Shown here one piece after another: positions 27,136 through 33,800 of a stretch of 64,000 nucleotides of DNA (positions are counted from its first letter, which is position 1; every line of letters begins with the position of its first letter). Location of the stretch: positions 320,001 through 384,000 of the forward strand of contig JBGARZ010000007.1 of assembly GCA_044229975.1 (NCBI GenBank), read 5' to 3'. A program made the position numbers and the translations under genes. This DNA comes from Polyangiales bacterium. GTDB lineage: Bacteria; Myxococcota_A; Polyangia; Polyangiales; Ga0077539. Below the pieces are notes generated by a model, which did no database searches, was not told where the DNA came from, and saw nothing but the letters and a program-made list of their open reading frames with translations.

Positions 27136-29472
27136 GTGACCCTCGGCCTCCCGCCAACCCCCGAAGACGAGTACCTCTGGGGCTGGGACGCCACCCCCGC
27201 CATCGTCTCCGTCTGGGCCGATCACGACGGCCGCGCCCACGTCTGGCGTCGCACGCCCACCGGCATCTCCTACGAGCCCGCGCGCTTCCGCCCGTGGGCG
27301 CTGCTCGCCTCGCTCGACGACATCGTCTCCCCGTCACTCCCGCGCGGCGTCACCTGGCGCGAGCTCCGCGGCGACGGCCCGCTGCGCTTCCTCGTCGAGG
27401 CCGATGCCTCCCGCGACCTCACCGCGGCCATCCTCCGCAACGCCTCGCGCCGCACCGGACGCACCCTCCAGCGCCTCTCCGAGCTCGATGACGGCACCGT
27501 GCTCTCGCTCCCACCCGAGGAGCAGTACCTCGTCGCCACCGGCCGAACCCACTTCCGCGACCTCGCCTTCGACGACCTCCACCGCCTCGCCTTCGACCTC
27601 GAAACCACCGGCCTCGACCCCGCCCACCATCGCGTCTTCCTCGTCGCCATCCGCGACAACCGCGGCCTCGCCACGACCCTCGAAGTCGCCGACGCCTCCG
27701 ACGCCGCCGAAGCACAGCTCCTCCGCGACCTCGTCGCGCTCATCAAGACCCGCGACCCCGACGTCATCGAGAACCACAACCTCCACGGCTTCGACCTCCC
27801 CTTCATCGCGACCCGCGCTCGCGCGCTCGGCGTCCCGCTCACCTTCGGTCGCTTGCCCAGCGTTCGACTCGCGCCTCGCCCCGGACCGCGCGGCAAGACC
27901 CGCTACACCATCCCGGGCAGGGAGCTCATCGACACGCTCGACGCCGTTCGCCGCCACGACTTCTCGGCGCGCGACCTCCCTGGTCACGGCCTGAAAGCCG
28001 TCGCGAAGCACTTCGGGCTCGCGGGTCCTGATCGCGAGTACGTTGCTGGATCGAAGGTCTACGCGACCTGGCTCAGCGACCCCGCGCGGGTGCGCCGCTA
28101 CGCCCTCGACGACACCGCCGAGGCCATGGGACTCGCGCGCGTTCTCGGTGGTGCGGCCTTCGCGTTGGCCCGCATGGCGCCGCGTCGCTACGAGCGCCTC
28201 GCAGACGCCGGCCCCGCCACGGGTGTGCTCGACCCGCTCCTGGTGAGGGCGTACGTGCGCGCCGACACCGCGCTCCCCGCGCGCTCCGAGGGCGACGGAA
28301 CCGTCCACACCGGCGCCGCCCTCTACCTCTTCGCAGCCGGCGTGGCGAAGCGCATCGTGAAGGCCGACGTCGCGAGCCTGTACCCCTCGCTCATGCGGCA
28401 GTACCGCATCGGACCGCGCGGCGACGGCCTCGGCGCGCTGCTCGCACTGGTCGATCGCCTCGTCGAGCAACGACTCGCGGCGAAGGCGCGCGGTCGCGCG
28501 GCGCCGCACGGCTCCAACGAGCGGTACACCGACGAGGCGCTGTCGGCGGCGATGAAGATCCTCGTCAACTCGGCCTACGGCTATCTCGGCGCGGTCGGGC
28601 TCACGCGCTTCGCGGACGTGCACGCGGCCAACGAGGTCACGCGGCGCGGTCGCGAGGTGCTCGATCGCGTTTGCGCGGCGCTGGCCGAGCGCGGCGTGAC
28701 GCTGCTGGAGGGGGACACCGACGGCGTGTACTTCGCCGTTCCCGAGGAGTGGAGCGAGGAGGACGAGCGGCGCGTGGTGCGCGAGGTCGGAGAACTGCTA
28801 CCGCCGCTGGTGCGGTTGGAGTTCGACGGGCGCTACGCCGCGATGCTCTCGCACGAGCCCAAGAACTACGCGCTGCTCGGCTACGACGGAAAGCTGCTGC
28901 TGCGCGGGGTGGCCTTCCGATCGAGCCGCTCGGAGGCGTATGGGGAGCGCTTCCTGCGCGAGGCGGCGGGCTGTCTGCTGGCGGGCGACGTGAAGGGCGC
29001 GCGGGCCGCGTACCGGGCGACGGTGACGGCGGTGCGGGCGCGGGCGCTGCCGACGTCGGACGTGGCGATGCGGGTGCGGCTGACGAAGGAGACGGCAGCG
29101 TACGTGGCGACGCGCCATCGCCGAAAGGAGCTGCCCTACGAGGCGGTGCTGACCAACGGGCGCACGACGTGGGCGGTGGGCGAGCGGGTGCGGATCTACC
29201 GGGCGACGGGTGGTCGCGCGGGGCTGCTGACGGAGGCGGAGGAGGGCGGCGACGAGGGCGCGGTCGACGCGAGGGACTACGACGTGGAGCACTACGTGCG
29301 GGTGCTGCGCGACGGGTACGCGACGCGGCTGGCGCGGGCGTTTTCGCCGGAGGGGTTCAGGGCGCTCTTCGACGACCCCGACCAGCCGTCGCTGTTTGCG
29401 CGGCTCGACGAGCTGGTGCAGCCGCGGCTGACGGTGTGTCGCGCGCCGCCGCGGTTGCGCGAGGGGGAGTAG
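27136..29472 (+). CDS. polB: Family B DNA polymerase with 3'-5' exonuclease domain
   Basis: ExoI FDLETTG, ExoII NHNLHGFDLPF, ExoIII YALDD; polymerase motifs DVASLYPS, KILVNSAYG, GDTDG, KNY. Confidence 0.9.
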   Translation: MTLGLPPTPEDEYLWGWDATPAIVSVWADHDGRAHVWRRTPTGISYEPARFRPWALLASLDDIVSPSLPRGVTWRELRGDGPLRFLVEADASRDLTAAILRNASRRTGRTLQRLSELDDGTVLSLPPEEQYLVATGRTHFRDLAFDDLHRLAFDLETTGLDPAHHRVFLVAIRDNRGLATTLEVADASDAAEAQLLRDLVALIKTRDPDVIENHNLHGFDLPFIATRARALGVPLTFGRLPSVRLAPRPGPRGKTRYTIPGRELIDTLDAVRRHDFSARDLPGHGLKAVAKHFGLAGPDREYVAGSKVYATWLSDPARVRRYALDDTAEAMGLARVLGGAAFALARMAPRRYERLADAGPATGVLDPLLVRAYVRADTALPARSEGDGTVHTGAALYLFAAGVAKRIVKADVASLYPSLMRQYRIGPRGDGLGALLALVDRLVEQRLAAKARGRAAPHGSNERYTDEALSAAMKILVNSAYGYLGAVGLTRFADVHAANEVTRRGREVLDRVCAALAERGVTLLEGDTDGVYFAVPEEWSEEDERRVVREVGELLPPLVRLEFDGRYAAMLSHEPKNYALLGYDGKLLLRGVAFRSSRSEAYGERFLREAAGCLLAGDVKGARAAYRATVTAVRARALPTSDVAMRVRLTKETAAYVATRHRRKELPYEAVLTNGRTTWAVGERVRIYRATGGRAGLLTEAEEGGDEGAVDARDYDVEHYVRVLRDGYATRLARAFSPEGFRALFDDPDQPSLFARLDELVQPRLTVCRAPPRLREGE

Positions 29473-29486
29473 TGGAGAGCGAGCGG

Positions 29487-30215
29487 ATGCGCTTGCTGGT
29501 CGTCGCGGTCGCGCTGCTGGGATGCGCCGCGCGGCCGCCGCTCGCGGTCGTCGCGCGGGACTCCCCCGACGTCGGCGCCGTCGTTCGCATCCGCGGCACC
29601 GGCGCGTGCCTCGCGGTGCGCGTCGCTCCGGGCACGCTGCTCACCGCGGCCCACTGTGTCGTCGGCGTTCGCTCGCTCGGGGACATCCGCGTCGGCGCGC
29701 CGCCCCGCGCCGTGCGCCCGCCCCGCGTGCTCTCGTGCGCGCTGCATCCGACCAACGCGCCGCGCTTCGACCGCTGCGACGTCGACGACCACAACGCCCG
29801 CGGTCACCTCGGTGACGTGTGGGGCGACCTCGCGATCCTGCGCGTGGGGGATGATCCCGCGGGTGCTCCGGTGCTCCCGTCGTTGGAGTCGCTCGCCGAC
29901 CCGGAGTCGCTGGTGGGCCTCGACGCGTGGGTGATCTCCGACGACGCGCCTACCTGGATCGACGCGTCCGCGCCGCGCCCGGTGCGCAACCGGGTGACCT
30001 TCGCCGAGCAGGGCGAGGTGCGCACGGCGGGCGCCGATCGCGCGGACATCTCGACGCGACCCGGCGACTCGGGCGGTCCGTTGCTGATGCGCCGCGCGGG
30101 GCGCTGGGTGGTGGTGGGTGTCCTGTCGGGCGGGGCGAGCGACTACTCGCCGGACTCGCGCTTCGCACCGACCTTCGCCGTCGAGACGTCGGCGTGGCTC
30201 GCACGCTCCCGTTGA
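29487..30215 (+). CDS. Trypsin-like (S1) serine protease lipoprotein
   Basis: LTAAHC, GDLAIL, GDSGGP; lipobox LLGC. Confidence 0.88.
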   Translation: MRLLVVAVALLGCAARPPLAVVARDSPDVGAVVRIRGTGACLAVRVAPGTLLTAAHCVVGVRSLGDIRVGAPPRAVRPPRVLSCALHPTNAPRFDRCDVDDHNARGHLGDVWGDLAILRVGDDPAGAPVLPSLESLADPESLVGLDAWVISDDAPTWIDASAPRPVRNRVTFAEQGEVRTAGADRADISTRPGDSGGPLLMRRAGRWVVVGVLSGGASDYSPDSRFAPTFAVETSAWLARSR

Positions 30216-30254
30216 CCCAAGAGGGTTGTCGGAAAGAAAATTGTCGATTGGGCA

Positions 30255-30282
30255 TTGACCCGATATGGAAGTGCTGTAAGGT
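30255..30282 (+). promoter_or_regulatory. Putative sigma70 promoter for the RNA cassette
   Basis: TTGACC, 16 bp, TAAGGT, preceded by an A-rich tract (GAAAGAAAATT); GTCGAT-N5-ATTGAC imperfect palindrome overlaps the -35. Confidence 0.5.
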
Positions 30283-30299
30283 CGGCCTCGGTAACTGCC

Positions 30300-30398
30300 A
30301 TGACGACCAGGCCACACACGCAGAGGCGAAGGCGAGATGGAGAGCGCGAGCCGTCGCGCCTCGATCGCTCGGAAACCTGCGCTCCGGCCGTCTCGTAG
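30300..30398 (+). CDS. Putative 32-aa leader peptide (MTTRPHTQRRRRDGEREPSRLDRSETCAPAVS)
   Basis: ATG 30300 to TAG 30398, just downstream of the promoter; contains AGG x3 and CGA x2; no SD. Confidence 0.4.
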   Translation: MTTRPHTQRRRRDGEREPSRLDRSETCAPAVS

Positions 30399-30441
30399 CA
30401 GTACGCGACACGACGGAGCGCCACCGGCCCGAGCCGGAACC

Positions 30442-30517
30442 GCCACCGTCTTCTAACGGTAAAGGATGCTGGGCCCTCGACCCGGCGATGAGGGTTCAAA
30501 TCCCTTCGGTGGCACCA
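30442..30517 (+). tRNA. tRNA-Glu(CTC)-like, atypical (C33, G37), CCA encoded
   Basis: Acceptor GCCACCG/CGGTGGC, D arm TTCT-AACGGTAAA-GGAT, anticodon arm CTGGG-CCCTCGA-CCCGG, T arm GAGGG-TTCAAAT-CCCTT, ends ACCA. Confidence 0.75.
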
Positions 30518-30547
30518 TCGGTCTCCCTTGTCGGGAGCACCGAGCGG

Positions 30548-30621
30548 GTTCTCATAGGTCAACCGGATAGACCGCTCGTTTCCTAAACGGGTTGTTGGAG
30601 GTTCGAATCCTCCTGAGAACA
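30548..30621 (+). tRNA. tRNA-Arg(CCT), CCA not encoded
   Basis: GTTCTCA/TGAGAAC, D arm GGTC-AACCGGATA-GACC, anticodon arm CTCGT-TTCCTAA-ACGGG, T arm GGAGG-TTCGAAT-CCTCC. Confidence 0.88.
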
Positions 30622-30632
30622 CTGCCTTGTAT

Positions 30633-30705
30633 CCCCTGATGGTCCAGCGGTACGGACGCTCGCTCGTCGCGTGAGAAGCCCACGGTTCGACTCCCGGTCG
30701 GGGGG
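30633..30705 (+). tRNA. tRNA-Asp(GTC)-like, atypical (C33, G37, mismatched T stem), CCA not encoded
   Basis: CCCCTGA/TCGGGGG, D arm GTCC-AGCGGTAC-GGAC, anticodon arm CTCGC-TCGTCGC-GTGAG, T loop TTCGACT with two T-stem mismatches, G discriminator. Confidence 0.65.
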
Positions 30706-30725
30706 CTGTCGATTGAATAGTGTGG

Positions 30726-30834
30726 GGAGAGGACATTGGCGTAGCGGTGAAGCGGACTTCAAGTGTCTTGAGTGACGTCGTGCCCGGCTGCCGTGGGTTT
30801 TCAACCCGCGGTAGCCGGACGCAATGACCCCTTT
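30726..30834 (+). ncRNA. Unassigned multi-stem (three-way junction) structured RNA
   Basis: Closing stem CATTG(G)CGT/ACGCAATG; arm GCGGTG..ACT(T)CAAG-TGT-CTTGAGT..CGTCGT; 16-bp hairpin CCGGCTGCCGTGGGTT/AACCCGCGGTAGCCGG. Confidence 0.45.
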
Positions 30835-30892
30835 GAAGGAGCATGACGTCCCCCATTGACCCCGAGGCCCCATCGCGAGTGCAATCACCCGC

Positions 30893-33800
30893 ATGGACAG
30901 CCGCCCTCCCGTCGTCGCGCGAGCCCTCACCTGCCTCGCCCTCTGCCTCTCGGTCGGCGTCGGCTGTGACGGTGGCAACTCCGTCGTCGGCGGCGCCGAT
31001 GCGGGTGACAACACCGTCGACGTGAAGCCCATCGACACCGGCTCCGTCGTCGACGTCACCGACCTCGGTGCGACCGACGTCGTGGTCGATGTCCCCGGCA
31101 TGGACGCCGCCCTCGATGTCCCCTTCGACGCGCCCACCGATGTCGCTGCCGACGTCGCCGCCGACACGCCCGATGTCCCCACGCGCTGCATGGGCAACGG
31201 CGACTGCGCCGGCGACGCCACCCGCCCGGTCTGCGACACCGTCTCGGGTCGCTGCGTGGTCTGCACCGGTGCCGACCCGGGCGCCTGCTCGACCGCCGAG
31301 CACTGCGACTCGACGGCCAACGTGTGCGTTCCGGGCTGTCGCTCTGACGAGGGATGCGTCGCGGGCGACGGTGGCGTCGGTCCCGACGGCGGAACCGGTC
31401 GCTGCGACACCGAGCGCCACGTCTGCGTCGAGTGCAGCACCAACGCCCAGTGCGGCGCCGGTCGCCTCTGCGTGGGCAACGTGTGCGTCCCCGGGTGCAA
31501 CGACACCCAACCGTGCTCCGCAGGGCAGACCTGCTGCGCCGGTGCGTGCGCCGACCTCCAGACCAACCTCACCAACTGCGGCACCTGCGGAACCGTCTGC
31601 CGCACCCCCAACGGCACCCCCACCTGCCTCAATGCGATGTGCCAGGCGGGGACGTGCGGTGAGGGCTACGCCGACTGCAACCGCTCCAACGCCGACGGCT
31701 GCGAGGTCTCCCTCAACACCGACCTCACCAACTGCGGCACCTGCGGAACGGTGTGCCCCACCCCTGCCAACGCCAGCGCCTCCACCTGCGTGAGCGGCCG
31801 CTGCGGGTACACCTGCGCGCCCTCCTTCGCCGACTGCGACACCACGGCCGCCAACGGCTGCGAGGCCGACCTGCGCGTCAACGTCGCCCACTGCGGCGCG
31901 TGCGGGGTCGCCTGCCCGCCTCGCGACCACGCTCCCACGGGCGTCTGCGCGGCGGGGCGCTGCGACGTGGTGTGCGAGGCCAGCTACGGCAACTGCGACA
32001 ACAACCCCGACAACGGCTGCGAGCTCGACCTGCGCGCCGACGTCAACCACTGCGGAACCTGCGCGACCGTCTGCCCCCTCCGCGCCAACTCCACGCCGAC
32101 CTGCGCCGCGGGCGCGTGCGGGTTCACCTGCAACCCCGGCTTCGGCGACTGCGACGGCAACCCCGCCAACGGCTGCGAGGCCGCGCTCAACACCGACGCC
32201 ACCCATTGCGGCACCTGCACCACCGCGTGCGCGACCCCGGCCAACGCCCAGTCCGTGTCGTGCGTCTCGGGTCGCTGCGACTTCACCTGCCGCGCGCCCT
32301 TCGCCGACTGCGACGGCCTCGACACCAACGGCTGCGAGACCGACCCCCGCGGATCGGTCGCCCATTGCGGTGGCTGCGGCCTCGCGTGCCCGACGCGCCC
32401 CAACGCCTCGCCGACCTGCGCGGGCGGCACCTGCGGCCTGCGCTGCGACACCGGCTTCGGCGACTGCGACGGCGACGCCACCAACGGCTGCGAGACCGAC
32501 CTGCGCACCACCGTGTCGAGCTGCGGCGCCTGCGGTCGGGTGTGCAGCGTTCCGGGTGGGCTGGCGGCGTGTGTGGCCTCGACCTGCGTCGTGGCCTCGT
32601 GCGGCAGCGGCGGCTTCGGCGACTGCGACGGCATCGCCGGCACCGGCTGCGAGACCGACCTGCGCTCCTCGCCCAACCACTGCGGCGCCTGCAACAACGC
32701 GTGCCCGGTGCGGGCCAACGCGATCCCCATCTGCGCGGTGGGCACCTGCGCGAGCGCCTGCCAGCCGGGCTACGGCGAGTGCGACGGAAACCTCACCAAC
32801 GGCTGCGAGACCAGCCTCGCGTCGAGCCCCGCGCACTGCGGGAGCTGCGGCCGGAGCTGCACGGCTCCCAACGCCGTCAGCGCGTGCGCGTCGAGCACCT
32901 GCACCCTCGCCTCGTGCAACCCGGGCTTCGGCGACTGCAACAGCAGCCCCGGCGACGGCTGCGAGGTCGACCTGCGCAACACCGCCACCTCGTGCGGAAC
33001 ATGCGGCCGCACCTGCACCATCGCCAACGGCGCGGCGGGCTGCTCGTCGGGCGCGTGCACCGTGGCGGCGTGCTTCGGCGGTTACGGCGACTGCAACAAC
33101 AGCCCGACCGACGGCTGCGAGACCAACCTCTCCAACACCGTCTCGTCGTGCGGCGCATGCGGGCGCTCGTGTGCGGCAGCCAACGGCACGGCGGGGTGCT
33201 CGTCGGGCGCGTGCACGGTGGCGTCGTGCAACGCCGGCTACGCCAACTGCAACGGCAGCCCTGGCGACGGCTGCGAGGTCAACCTCACCAACGATCCCAA
33301 CAACTGCGGCGGCTGCGGGGTGCGCGGCGTCGAGGTGTGCGACGGCCGCGACAACGACTGCGACGGCGCGGTCGACGAGGGCTGCCCGACGGGCCTCGCG
33401 GGGCTCTCGACCTTCGACGCCTACGGCCCGCCGTGGGGCGGCGGCGGCGGCGACGCCTACGACATGGCCTGCCCGTCGGGGCAGGTCGTGACGGGCCTCT
33501 TCGGCCGCTCGGGGAGCTACCTCGACAACGTCGGCTTCTACTGCGGCACCCCGACGCTCGTGGAAGACCGCTCGGTGACGCCCTACACCTACCGCGTCGA
33601 CGTGAGCGGCGGCTCGACGCTCGGCCCGGTGGGTGGCGGCGGCGGCGGGTACTTCTCCTTCGCGTGCCCGGCCAACACCGTCGCGATGCGCGTGCTGGGG
33701 CGAGGGGCCGGGTACATCGATCGCTTCCAGATCGAGTGCTTCCGCTGGGACGTGAGCGGCTCACCGACGGCGGGCTTCACCATCTCGCGCAGCAGCAGCG

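Follow-up and report, generated by a model that had tools for sequence, protein, structure and literature searches.

Classical multivalent attenuators of E. coli (thrL, ilvL, hisL and pheM) comprise a leader ORF with a cluster of cognate codons and an intrinsic terminator, and their targets are enzymes. T-box riboswitches bind tRNA directly, thereby reading the supply of a specific tRNA and controlling genes tied to that tRNA. The hisL leader-peptide attenuator is described in PMC12360218. Attenuators that depend on Rho and are controlled by an upstream ORF (uORF) include tnaC, mgtL, corL and speFL/orf34 (PMC12360218, PMC6386406); the orf34 leader of speF has 34 codons, contains the Arg codons AGG CGG and alters RNA folding and stability (PMC6386406). 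The Streptomyces leaders leuL1, trpL2, metL and thrL carry cognate codons and lack a U-tract (PMC8079986). Long tRNA arrays (L-arrays) encode redundant reserve tRNAs and are induced by translational stress via a promoter repressor (PMC8421152), and the trn operon of Anabaena is under TrcR, a promoter repressor with direct repeats (PMC10272220). In the available text of these two array papers the words 'leader' and 'attenuat' do not occur (PMC8421152, PMC10272220), and a word search in the available text of a T-box survey (PMC2494555) and an attenuator survey (PMC2965389) returned no passage on the natural control of tRNA genes. No report of leader ORFs or leader peptides controlling tRNA genes was found in the literature searched, which consisted of main texts from mostly non-subscription papers.

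The locus described here is a cassette of three tRNA genes preceded by a leader ORF with cognate codons. It lies in a 64-kb window (the whole stretch of DNA analysed, G000:C33:320001–384000) of a 10-Mb genome (G000) with 71% GC. As judged from sequence comparison, this Glu/Arg/Asp leader is real, conserved and one of the codon-matched leaders that head spare tRNA cassettes across the genome. The arrangement resembles thrL, ilvL, hisL and pheM in that a short ORF follows the promoter, cognate codons are clustered, and mutually exclusive 1:2, 2:3 and 3:4 helices are predicted. In contrast to these attenuators, the putative targets are the very tRNAs by which the sensor codons are decoded, with a match down to the anticodon level, and segment 4 is the 5´ end of a tRNA without a U-tailed terminator. 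Two classical features, an intrinsic terminator at 3:4 and enzyme or synthetase targets, were thus not found, the downstream genes being three tRNAs. A uORF without an intrinsic terminator is shared with tnaC, mgtL, corL and speFL, whereas those leaders act on protein-coding genes in response to metabolites or Mg2+, and a Rho dependence is only presumed here. The Streptomyces leaders are similar in belonging to a high-GC bacterium and in combining cognate codons with hairpins that lack a typical intrinsic terminator; however, the genes behind them serve biosynthesis or transport or encode synthetases, and are not tRNA genes. The uORF-Rho, speF and Streptomyces leaders are therefore precedents for the missing terminator. 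As in L-arrays, the tRNAs of the window are redundant with the housekeeping set, but the window cassette has only three tRNA genes, and the reserve is distributed over small cassettes that each carry a codon-matched leader of their own. As with T-boxes, the supply of a specific tRNA would govern genes linked to that tRNA; in contrast, the sensor here is an ORF, and a match to the T-box consensus or its stem I specifier is absent. We conclude that the feature is real and that it probably represents a new form of leader-peptide attenuation, one acting on tRNA genes.

The cassette is read from the forward strand. A predicted sigma-70-type promoter, TTGACC-N16-TAAGGT, is located at 30255–30282 (−35 at 30255–30260, −10 at 30277–30282), which places the transcription start probably near 30289. 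An UP-element-like A/T-rich stretch (30233–30249), with a similar stretch in the homologs, precedes it; 14 of the 25 nt 5´ of the −35 box are A or T in this 71% GC genome. The pattern TTGACC-N16-TANNNT is kept in all four aligned loci, the window included, and the site is omitted by a consensus promoter scan, its score being under the 9-of-12 threshold. The leader ORF (30300–30398) comprises 32 codons and a TAG stop, starts in a GCC-ATG context without a Shine-Dalgarno (SD) sequence, and ends 43 nt 5´ of tRNA-Glu(CTC). Codons 9–17 (30324–30350) form the sensor run AGG CGA AGG CGA GAT GGA GAG CGC GAG, in which Arg, Asp and Glu codons prevail and AGG occurs twice; an additional AGG is codon 4. 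The stop codon sits at the top of a long hairpin (30377–30421) with the outer stem GCGCTCCG (30379–30386) paired to CGGAGCGC (30414–30421). The first-pass annotation had proposed the promoter, the 32-codon ORF with its AGG codons, the stop codon within a hairpin 5´ of the first tRNA, and the correspondence between leader codons and the downstream Glu(CTC), Arg(CCT) and Asp(GTC) genes; all of these were confirmed in position, and the codons are cognate. Its statement that AGG is rare also holds, with 2.72 per 1000 codons across 3802 long ORFs, where it makes up 3.0% of the Arg codons. SD-like motifs are found at just 239 of 978 unambiguous gene starts in the genome, and CGCC is the second commonest 4-mer 5´ of ATG. 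Since most starts are SD-free, the absence of an SD sequence from the leader is normal here.

The three tRNA genes are tRNA-Glu(CTC) at 30442–30517 (Rfam 48.7 bits), tRNA-Arg(CCT) at 30548–30622 (62.7 bits) and tRNA-Asp(GTC) at 30633–30706 (36 bits), all on the forward strand and above the Rfam gathering score. In a paralogous cassette, the homologs of the Glu and Arg genes are Glu(TTC) and Arg(ACG), respectively. Housekeeping duplicates are present elsewhere in the genome, with Glu(CTC) on contig C24, Arg(CCT) at C32:767505 and Asp(GTC) at C38:51445. Each window tRNA has a separate, higher-scoring housekeeping copy; the window cassette is therefore a spare set. The spare tRNA-Glu(CTC) (30474–30480) and tRNA-Asp(GTC) (30664–30670) have C33 instead of the near-universal U, plus G37; C33 was also found in Glu(CTC) of the long array L043. 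In an Rfam search of the window, only tRNAs exceeded the gathering score, with T-box, ribozyme and other families all below it. For the leader, T-box gave no match up to E=10, and the Rfam matches were at chance level. The RNA data comprised one run, with a single contig over the Asp tRNA alone, and speak neither for nor against expression of the cassette.

The surroundings of the cassette were also inspected. A family-B DNA polymerase-like gene (27136–29472) and a trypsin-like protease gene (29487–30215) lie on the 5´ side, a 1022-aa Cys-rich protein with no Pfam match is encoded downstream, and the genes flanking the Glu/Arg/Asp cassette vary among homologous loci. A REP-like short palindromic repeat (30778–30833) is located 3´ of the Asp tRNA, with at least seven further matches in the genome and many in G001. 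Upstream of the −35 box, a palindrome CATCGA-N9-TCGATG around an A-tract is present in L031 and L042, carries one mismatch in G005 and is degenerate in the window; it could be a protein-binding site.

The codon content of the window leader is only modestly biased when taken alone. AGG accounts for three of its eight Arg codons (binomial p=1.3e-3), and Asp, Glu and Arg (D/E/R) codons for 13 of 31 against 6.3 expected (p=0.005), with 10/30 and 8/30 in the remaining two frames. Because this enrichment is modest, the case rests on the homologs and on the sister cassettes.

Homologous leaders were obtained by a DNA search of 61 genomes, which yielded contig C2 of the same genome and G005, and by a metagenome scan, which yielded L042. 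The C2 and G005 cassettes consist of Glu(TTC), Glu(CTC), Arg(ACG) and Asp(GTC), and the L042 cassette is cut after the first tRNA. All four loci, including the window, retain the promoter spacing, the GCC-ATG start, a frame free of gaps as far as codon 31 and a stop atop the same hairpin, the outer stem of which is invariant in the four leaders. A 1-nt deletion at the extreme end of the C2 leader moves its stop two codons downstream; the remaining indels among the leaders all fall outside the ORF. Only 13 of 30 residues are common with the window leader, and substitutions (8/13/13, 8/12/15 and 7/12/15 per codon position) show little third-position bias, which indicates that the peptide sequence is not what is conserved. 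Codons 9–18, however, are mostly Asp, Glu and Arg codons in these leaders, so the codon class is kept; in the homologs the stretch covers codons 10–18, with CGN as the Arg codons. The two sequence-level checks named in the first-pass annotation both came out in its favour, as the ORF is kept in the three homologous leaders and AGG accompanies the CCT anticodon, with the refinement that only the cognate-codon class is conserved and the AGG run itself is not. None of the 18 Arg codons in the C2 and G005 leaders, both associated with Arg(ACG), is AGG; CGA, CGT and CGC are used instead. AGG is likewise absent from the nine Arg codons of L042, whose cassette is cut. Since the first two tRNAs of the window have Glu(TTC) and Arg(ACG) of C2 as their homologs, anticodons and leader codons appear to have changed together. 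This AGG/CCT co-change is, on the alignment, one event among four homologs that are close kin.

The window copy is the most divergent of the four, with 72% identity to C2. The Glu/Arg/Asp leader is rare. Leader matches were found in 2 of 31 family genomes, and no further leader was found in a 401-genome order sample and a 401-genome phylum sample, for which two candidates were scored per genome and many genomes are incomplete. Six matches involved the tRNA only, and a homologous leader was absent from them. The metagenome scan gave one locus and the species-genome scan another (L138), which was left out of the counts as a possible duplicate; a viral scan gave 10 matches, none with a tRNA.

Alternative structures were predicted by a consensus fold on the four homologous leaders and by blocking a ribosome footprint codon by codon in transcripts ending at tRNA nucleotide 20. 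Segment 1 (30294–30323) comprises ACTGC in the 5´ UTR, the start codon and CGCAG at codons 7–8. In the consensus fold it pairs with segment 2, formed by the 3´ end of the ORF and bases past the stop, when the ribosome is absent. This 1:2 helix has 17 pairs, with 98.5% of cells paired and two compensatory pairs, a count that is reached by 33 of 500 shuffles; the covariation is only suggestive. Segments 2 and 3 form the stop-codon hairpin, the predicted ON helix. The predicted OFF helix, 3:4 (30412–30450), pairs the 3´ end of the leader with nt 1–9 of tRNA-Glu, extending over the first 9–13 nt in the consensus fold of the four leaders, around a CCGGC-N4-GCCGG hairpin and has no U-tract. With the ribosome on codons 7–15, the 2:3 hairpin is predicted to form with a probability of 0.83–1.00, compared with 0.00–0.02 on codons 25–31; these stall positions were picked after inspection of the data. 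Masking of the tRNA 5´ end climbs from about 0.1–0.5 to 0.5–0.8 between the same positions. In the C2 leader, with its later stop, 2:3 re-forms when the ribosome is at the stop codon. The on-off amplitude is matched by 2/60, 0/60, 0/60 and 0/60 shuffled leaders for the four sequences, which are related to one another, and the local 3:4 fold beats 200/200, 200/200 and 198/200 shuffles in three Glu/Arg/Asp leaders. Mutually exclusive helices chosen by ribosome position, a feature of attenuators, are thus predicted, and the folding of alternative structures suggested in the first-pass annotation gave a 1:2/2:3/3:4 switch in the model. We lean, by a small measure, towards the view that this helix switch operates in the Glu/Arg/Asp cassette.

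This fold contains no U-tailed terminator. The stop-codon hairpin was rejected as a terminator, as it lacks a U-tract and is instead the predicted ON (2:3) helix. The bases after the 3:4 helix are UUCU in the window and AA in the homologs, and no intrinsic terminator was found in 30000–31200. Leader:tRNA duplex energies were ordinary in the eight leaders computed, with 77–253 of 300 shuffles equally strong. Masking of the tRNA was not supported as a general rule, as the local masking probability of other cassettes is reached by 13–135 of 200 shuffles, and clean unmasking at the sensor codons is absent from the Asn/Lys/Arg and Tyr/His leaders. Equilibrium folding of 11 sister leaders that bear a terminator-like hairpin likewise did not yield a consistent antiterminator switch.

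The Glu/Arg/Asp leader has counterparts across the genome. ARAGORN made 85 tRNA calls in 60 clusters, the biggest of which has at most four called tRNAs. In nine spare cassettes, a promoter-like site lies at a long distance 5´ of the first tRNA, and the rule that the leader begins at the first ATG past the predicted −10 box yields an ORF at all nine scored cassettes; two low-scoring single tRNAs (C21 Thr CGT and C2 Arg GCG) were excluded from scoring. Cognate codons are enriched in the Cys/Ser leader (20/41, p=1.5e-13), the Asn/Lys/Arg leader (9/15, p=2e-5), the Tyr/His leader (4/10, p=5e-4), the window leader and the Gly leader (7/30, p=0.013), and number 15/33 in the C2 Glu/Arg/Asp leader. 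The counts are not significant in the Leu leader (3/22, p=0.38), the Tyr-only paralog leader (1/10) and the Trp/Phe/Gln leader taken as a whole ORF (9/104, p=0.32). The true pairing of leaders with cassettes ranks 1/720 for six types and 1/5040 for seven types in a permutation test, which left out two paralogs and for which the cassettes were picked after inspection of the data. In each of the six leaders tested, the leader frame scores highest of the three, narrowly so for the window. G004 and G005 both retain the Tyr/His leader as well as the Cys/Ser one. No homologous leader turned up when the Asn/Lys/Arg, Leu, Trp/Phe/Gln and Gly cassettes were used as queries at the family or genus level. 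As a control, 36 housekeeping tRNA starts were examined; a −35 box was found in 16 and lies within 80 nt in 15 of these, leaving housekeeping tRNAs no room for a leader ORF. The tRNA-sensing reading of the first-pass annotation is supported at the level of sequence, with AGG accompanying Arg(CCT), CGN accompanying Arg(ACG), and the design recurring across the spare-tRNA cassettes of the genome.

Several of the sister cassettes exhibit features of their own. The leader of the Trp/Phe/Gln/Gln cassette (G000:C16:42026–42343, L038) is a 105-codon ORF that spans the whole tRNA-Trp gene and stops 12 nt 5´ of tRNA-Phe; it has a single Trp codon before tRNA-Trp and 7/31 Gln/Phe codons after it (p=0.0015). 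A degenerate tRNA-Cys(GCA)-like gene (G000:C32:448899–448970 in L037, also in L102 and L104), identified by eye and missed by ARAGORN and Rfam, precedes four Ser tRNAs, and the leader of this Ser cassette is rich in Cys as well as Ser codons. Three spare tRNA-Leu genes at G000:C19:132218–132612 (L033) are 73–76 nt long and apparently lack the long variable arm; the Leu codons of their leader number exactly three (CTG, CTT and TTG) and correspond one to one to the anticodons CAG, GAG and CAA. The excluded tRNA-Arg at C2:10385 (G000) is low-scoring and has the unusual anticodon GCG; Arg(GCG) is present in long arrays of relatives too. In the Tyr/His leaders (L050, L070, L051, L052), His-Pro-His codons show complementarity to the seven 5´-terminal nucleotides of tRNA-Tyr; in those of G004 and G005, CAT is changed to CAC and tRNA position 5 from A to G, one possible compensatory event. 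Short release-factor-like genes (Pfam RF-1, PCRF) are located downstream of Tyr/His cassettes and elsewhere (L034, L050–L070), and 15 of the 17 loci inspected, out of 22, are split by an early CTT-TGA or CTT-TAG. This split resembles the +1 frameshift site of prfB, and the gene may be a backup that senses release factor.

In relatives from the same family and order, 11–41 tRNA genes are gathered in a single array. Their leaders (L043, L044, L105–L110, L113 and L119) are ORFs of 69–124 codons located 400–1000 nt 5´ of the first called tRNA. All 20 amino acids are encoded in nine of these ten leaders, which represent about three lineages, each leader alone having P 0.04–0.39 by codon usage. The sole miss, L119, may start at GTG, and the rule considered ATG only. 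A terminator-like hairpin follows the long-array leader ORF, and a similar hairpin is kept in the Ser cassettes of this genus. We infer that the small cassettes descend from a long array, their leaders having become specialised. In a fuller scenario, which is plausible but which we do not quite favour, an ancestral long reserve array with one all-20 leader would have split into codon-matched cassettes across the genome, the cell would read which tRNA fails and switch on that replacement, and the tRNA would serve as the fourth attenuator segment in the Glu/Arg/Asp cassette. If such a panel of sensors exists, one example of a trigger would be tRNA cleavage by the anticodon nuclease of a rival or a phage.

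Sensing of cognate codons by the leader is, on the codon and anticodon patterns, very likely. We also consider it reasonably probable that the Arg/Asp/Glu-rich leader acts as a ribosome sensor in which stalling frees the first tRNA and transcription continues through the cassette. In this mechanism, when the ribosome is absent, segment 1 would pair with segment 2 and segment 3 with the 5´ end of tRNA-Glu, and the cassette would be off. A ribosome stalled on codons 7–15 would cover segment 1, so that the 2:3 hairpin forms and the tRNA 5´ end is free, the on state. A ribosome passing the last codons would melt 2:3, and segment 3 would trap the tRNA 5´ end, turning the cassette off again. The signal would be a shortage of usable cognate tRNA, more probably through tRNA loss or damage than through amino-acid starvation, because extra tRNA supplies no amino acid. 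As there is no U-tailed terminator, the off step is presumed to proceed through Rho or precursor decay: Rho would stop transcription after the ribosome leaves the leader, and misfolded precursor would decay. Rho is encoded in the genome (PF07497 at C19:59135, E=1e-34), and six of nine leaders are strongly C-rich at the 5´ end, with a C-G skew of at least 0.42, compared with values above 0.4 in 11.6% of 978 genes. The 5´ part of the window leader has a C-G skew of 0.0 and does not look rut-like. Rho as the effector of the off step, which ranks first among the possible off steps ahead of precursor decay, is a tentative assignment, somewhat doubtful in our view.

A cognate-codon sensor might instead have a purely post-transcriptional output, with the cassette always transcribed and the switch deciding between folding and RNase P cleavage of the first tRNA on the one hand and decay of the precursor on the other. 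The identity of segment 4 with the tRNA 5´ end itself, the lack of an intrinsic terminator together with a window leader that is not C-rich, and the partial action of the Salmonella speF Arg-codon leader via RNA stability (PMC6386406) agree with such an output. It is nevertheless unlikely: a misfolded first tRNA would not obviously silence the Arg and Asp tRNAs, whose codons the leader also carries, and the terminator-like hairpins in sister cassettes and long arrays point to control of transcription. What the ribosome senses might also be less specific. A translated leader could respond to general ribosome trouble, such as antibiotics or damaged ribosomes, the codon match being a by-product of cassette history. 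Induction of known long tRNA arrays by translational stress (PMC8421152), the all-20-amino-acid leaders on the long arrays of relatives and the modest enrichment in the window leader would fit this explanation. However, differing cassettes carry differing, matching codon sets, as the 1/5040 rank reflects, and a change of Arg anticodon was accompanied by a change of Arg codon; a general sensor would need neither, and we regard this explanation as quite improbable as an alternative, although general-stress and cognate-codon sensing are compatible and can coexist.

Two further explanations deny the leader a sensing role. The transcript could be an untranslated structured RNA that aids processing or folding, with an incidental ORF and control exerted at the promoter by a protein repressor, like the cyanobacterial trn operon. 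Conservation of the 3´ part of the ORF at the nucleotide level, third positions included, accords with this, as do the missing SD sequence and the palindrome-like CATCGA-N9-TCGATG 5´ of the −35 box in two homologs. Yet SD-free starts are the majority in this genome, and an untranslated RNA leaves unexplained why leader codons match the cognate tRNAs in seven cassette types, why the frame is free of gaps despite flanking indels, and why stop codons sit in hairpins; we consider it very improbable. That the window copy is merely a decaying duplicate of the C2 cassette, with a leader that is no longer functional, is extremely improbable. Its divergence, the greatest of the four at 72% identity to C2, and the low Rfam scores and C33 of its Glu and Asp tRNAs could be taken as signs of decay, but the promoter and the frame persist, as do the helices, which show two compensatory pairs, AGG codons were gained along with the CCT anticodon, and C33 also occurs in Glu(CTC) of the unrelated long array L043. 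Cognate-codon sensing by a translated leader is the reading that we prefer.

The regulation of individual bacterial tRNA genes has been called largely unknown (PMC8421152). Seven cassette types and natural anticodon swaps in one genome make the specificity of the proposed sensing testable, and codon-matched leaders could be portable reporters for the loss of a given tRNA. If the mechanism is true, decoding speed would exert direct negative feedback on the supply of the very tRNA that the ribosome awaits, at the level of the isoacceptor.
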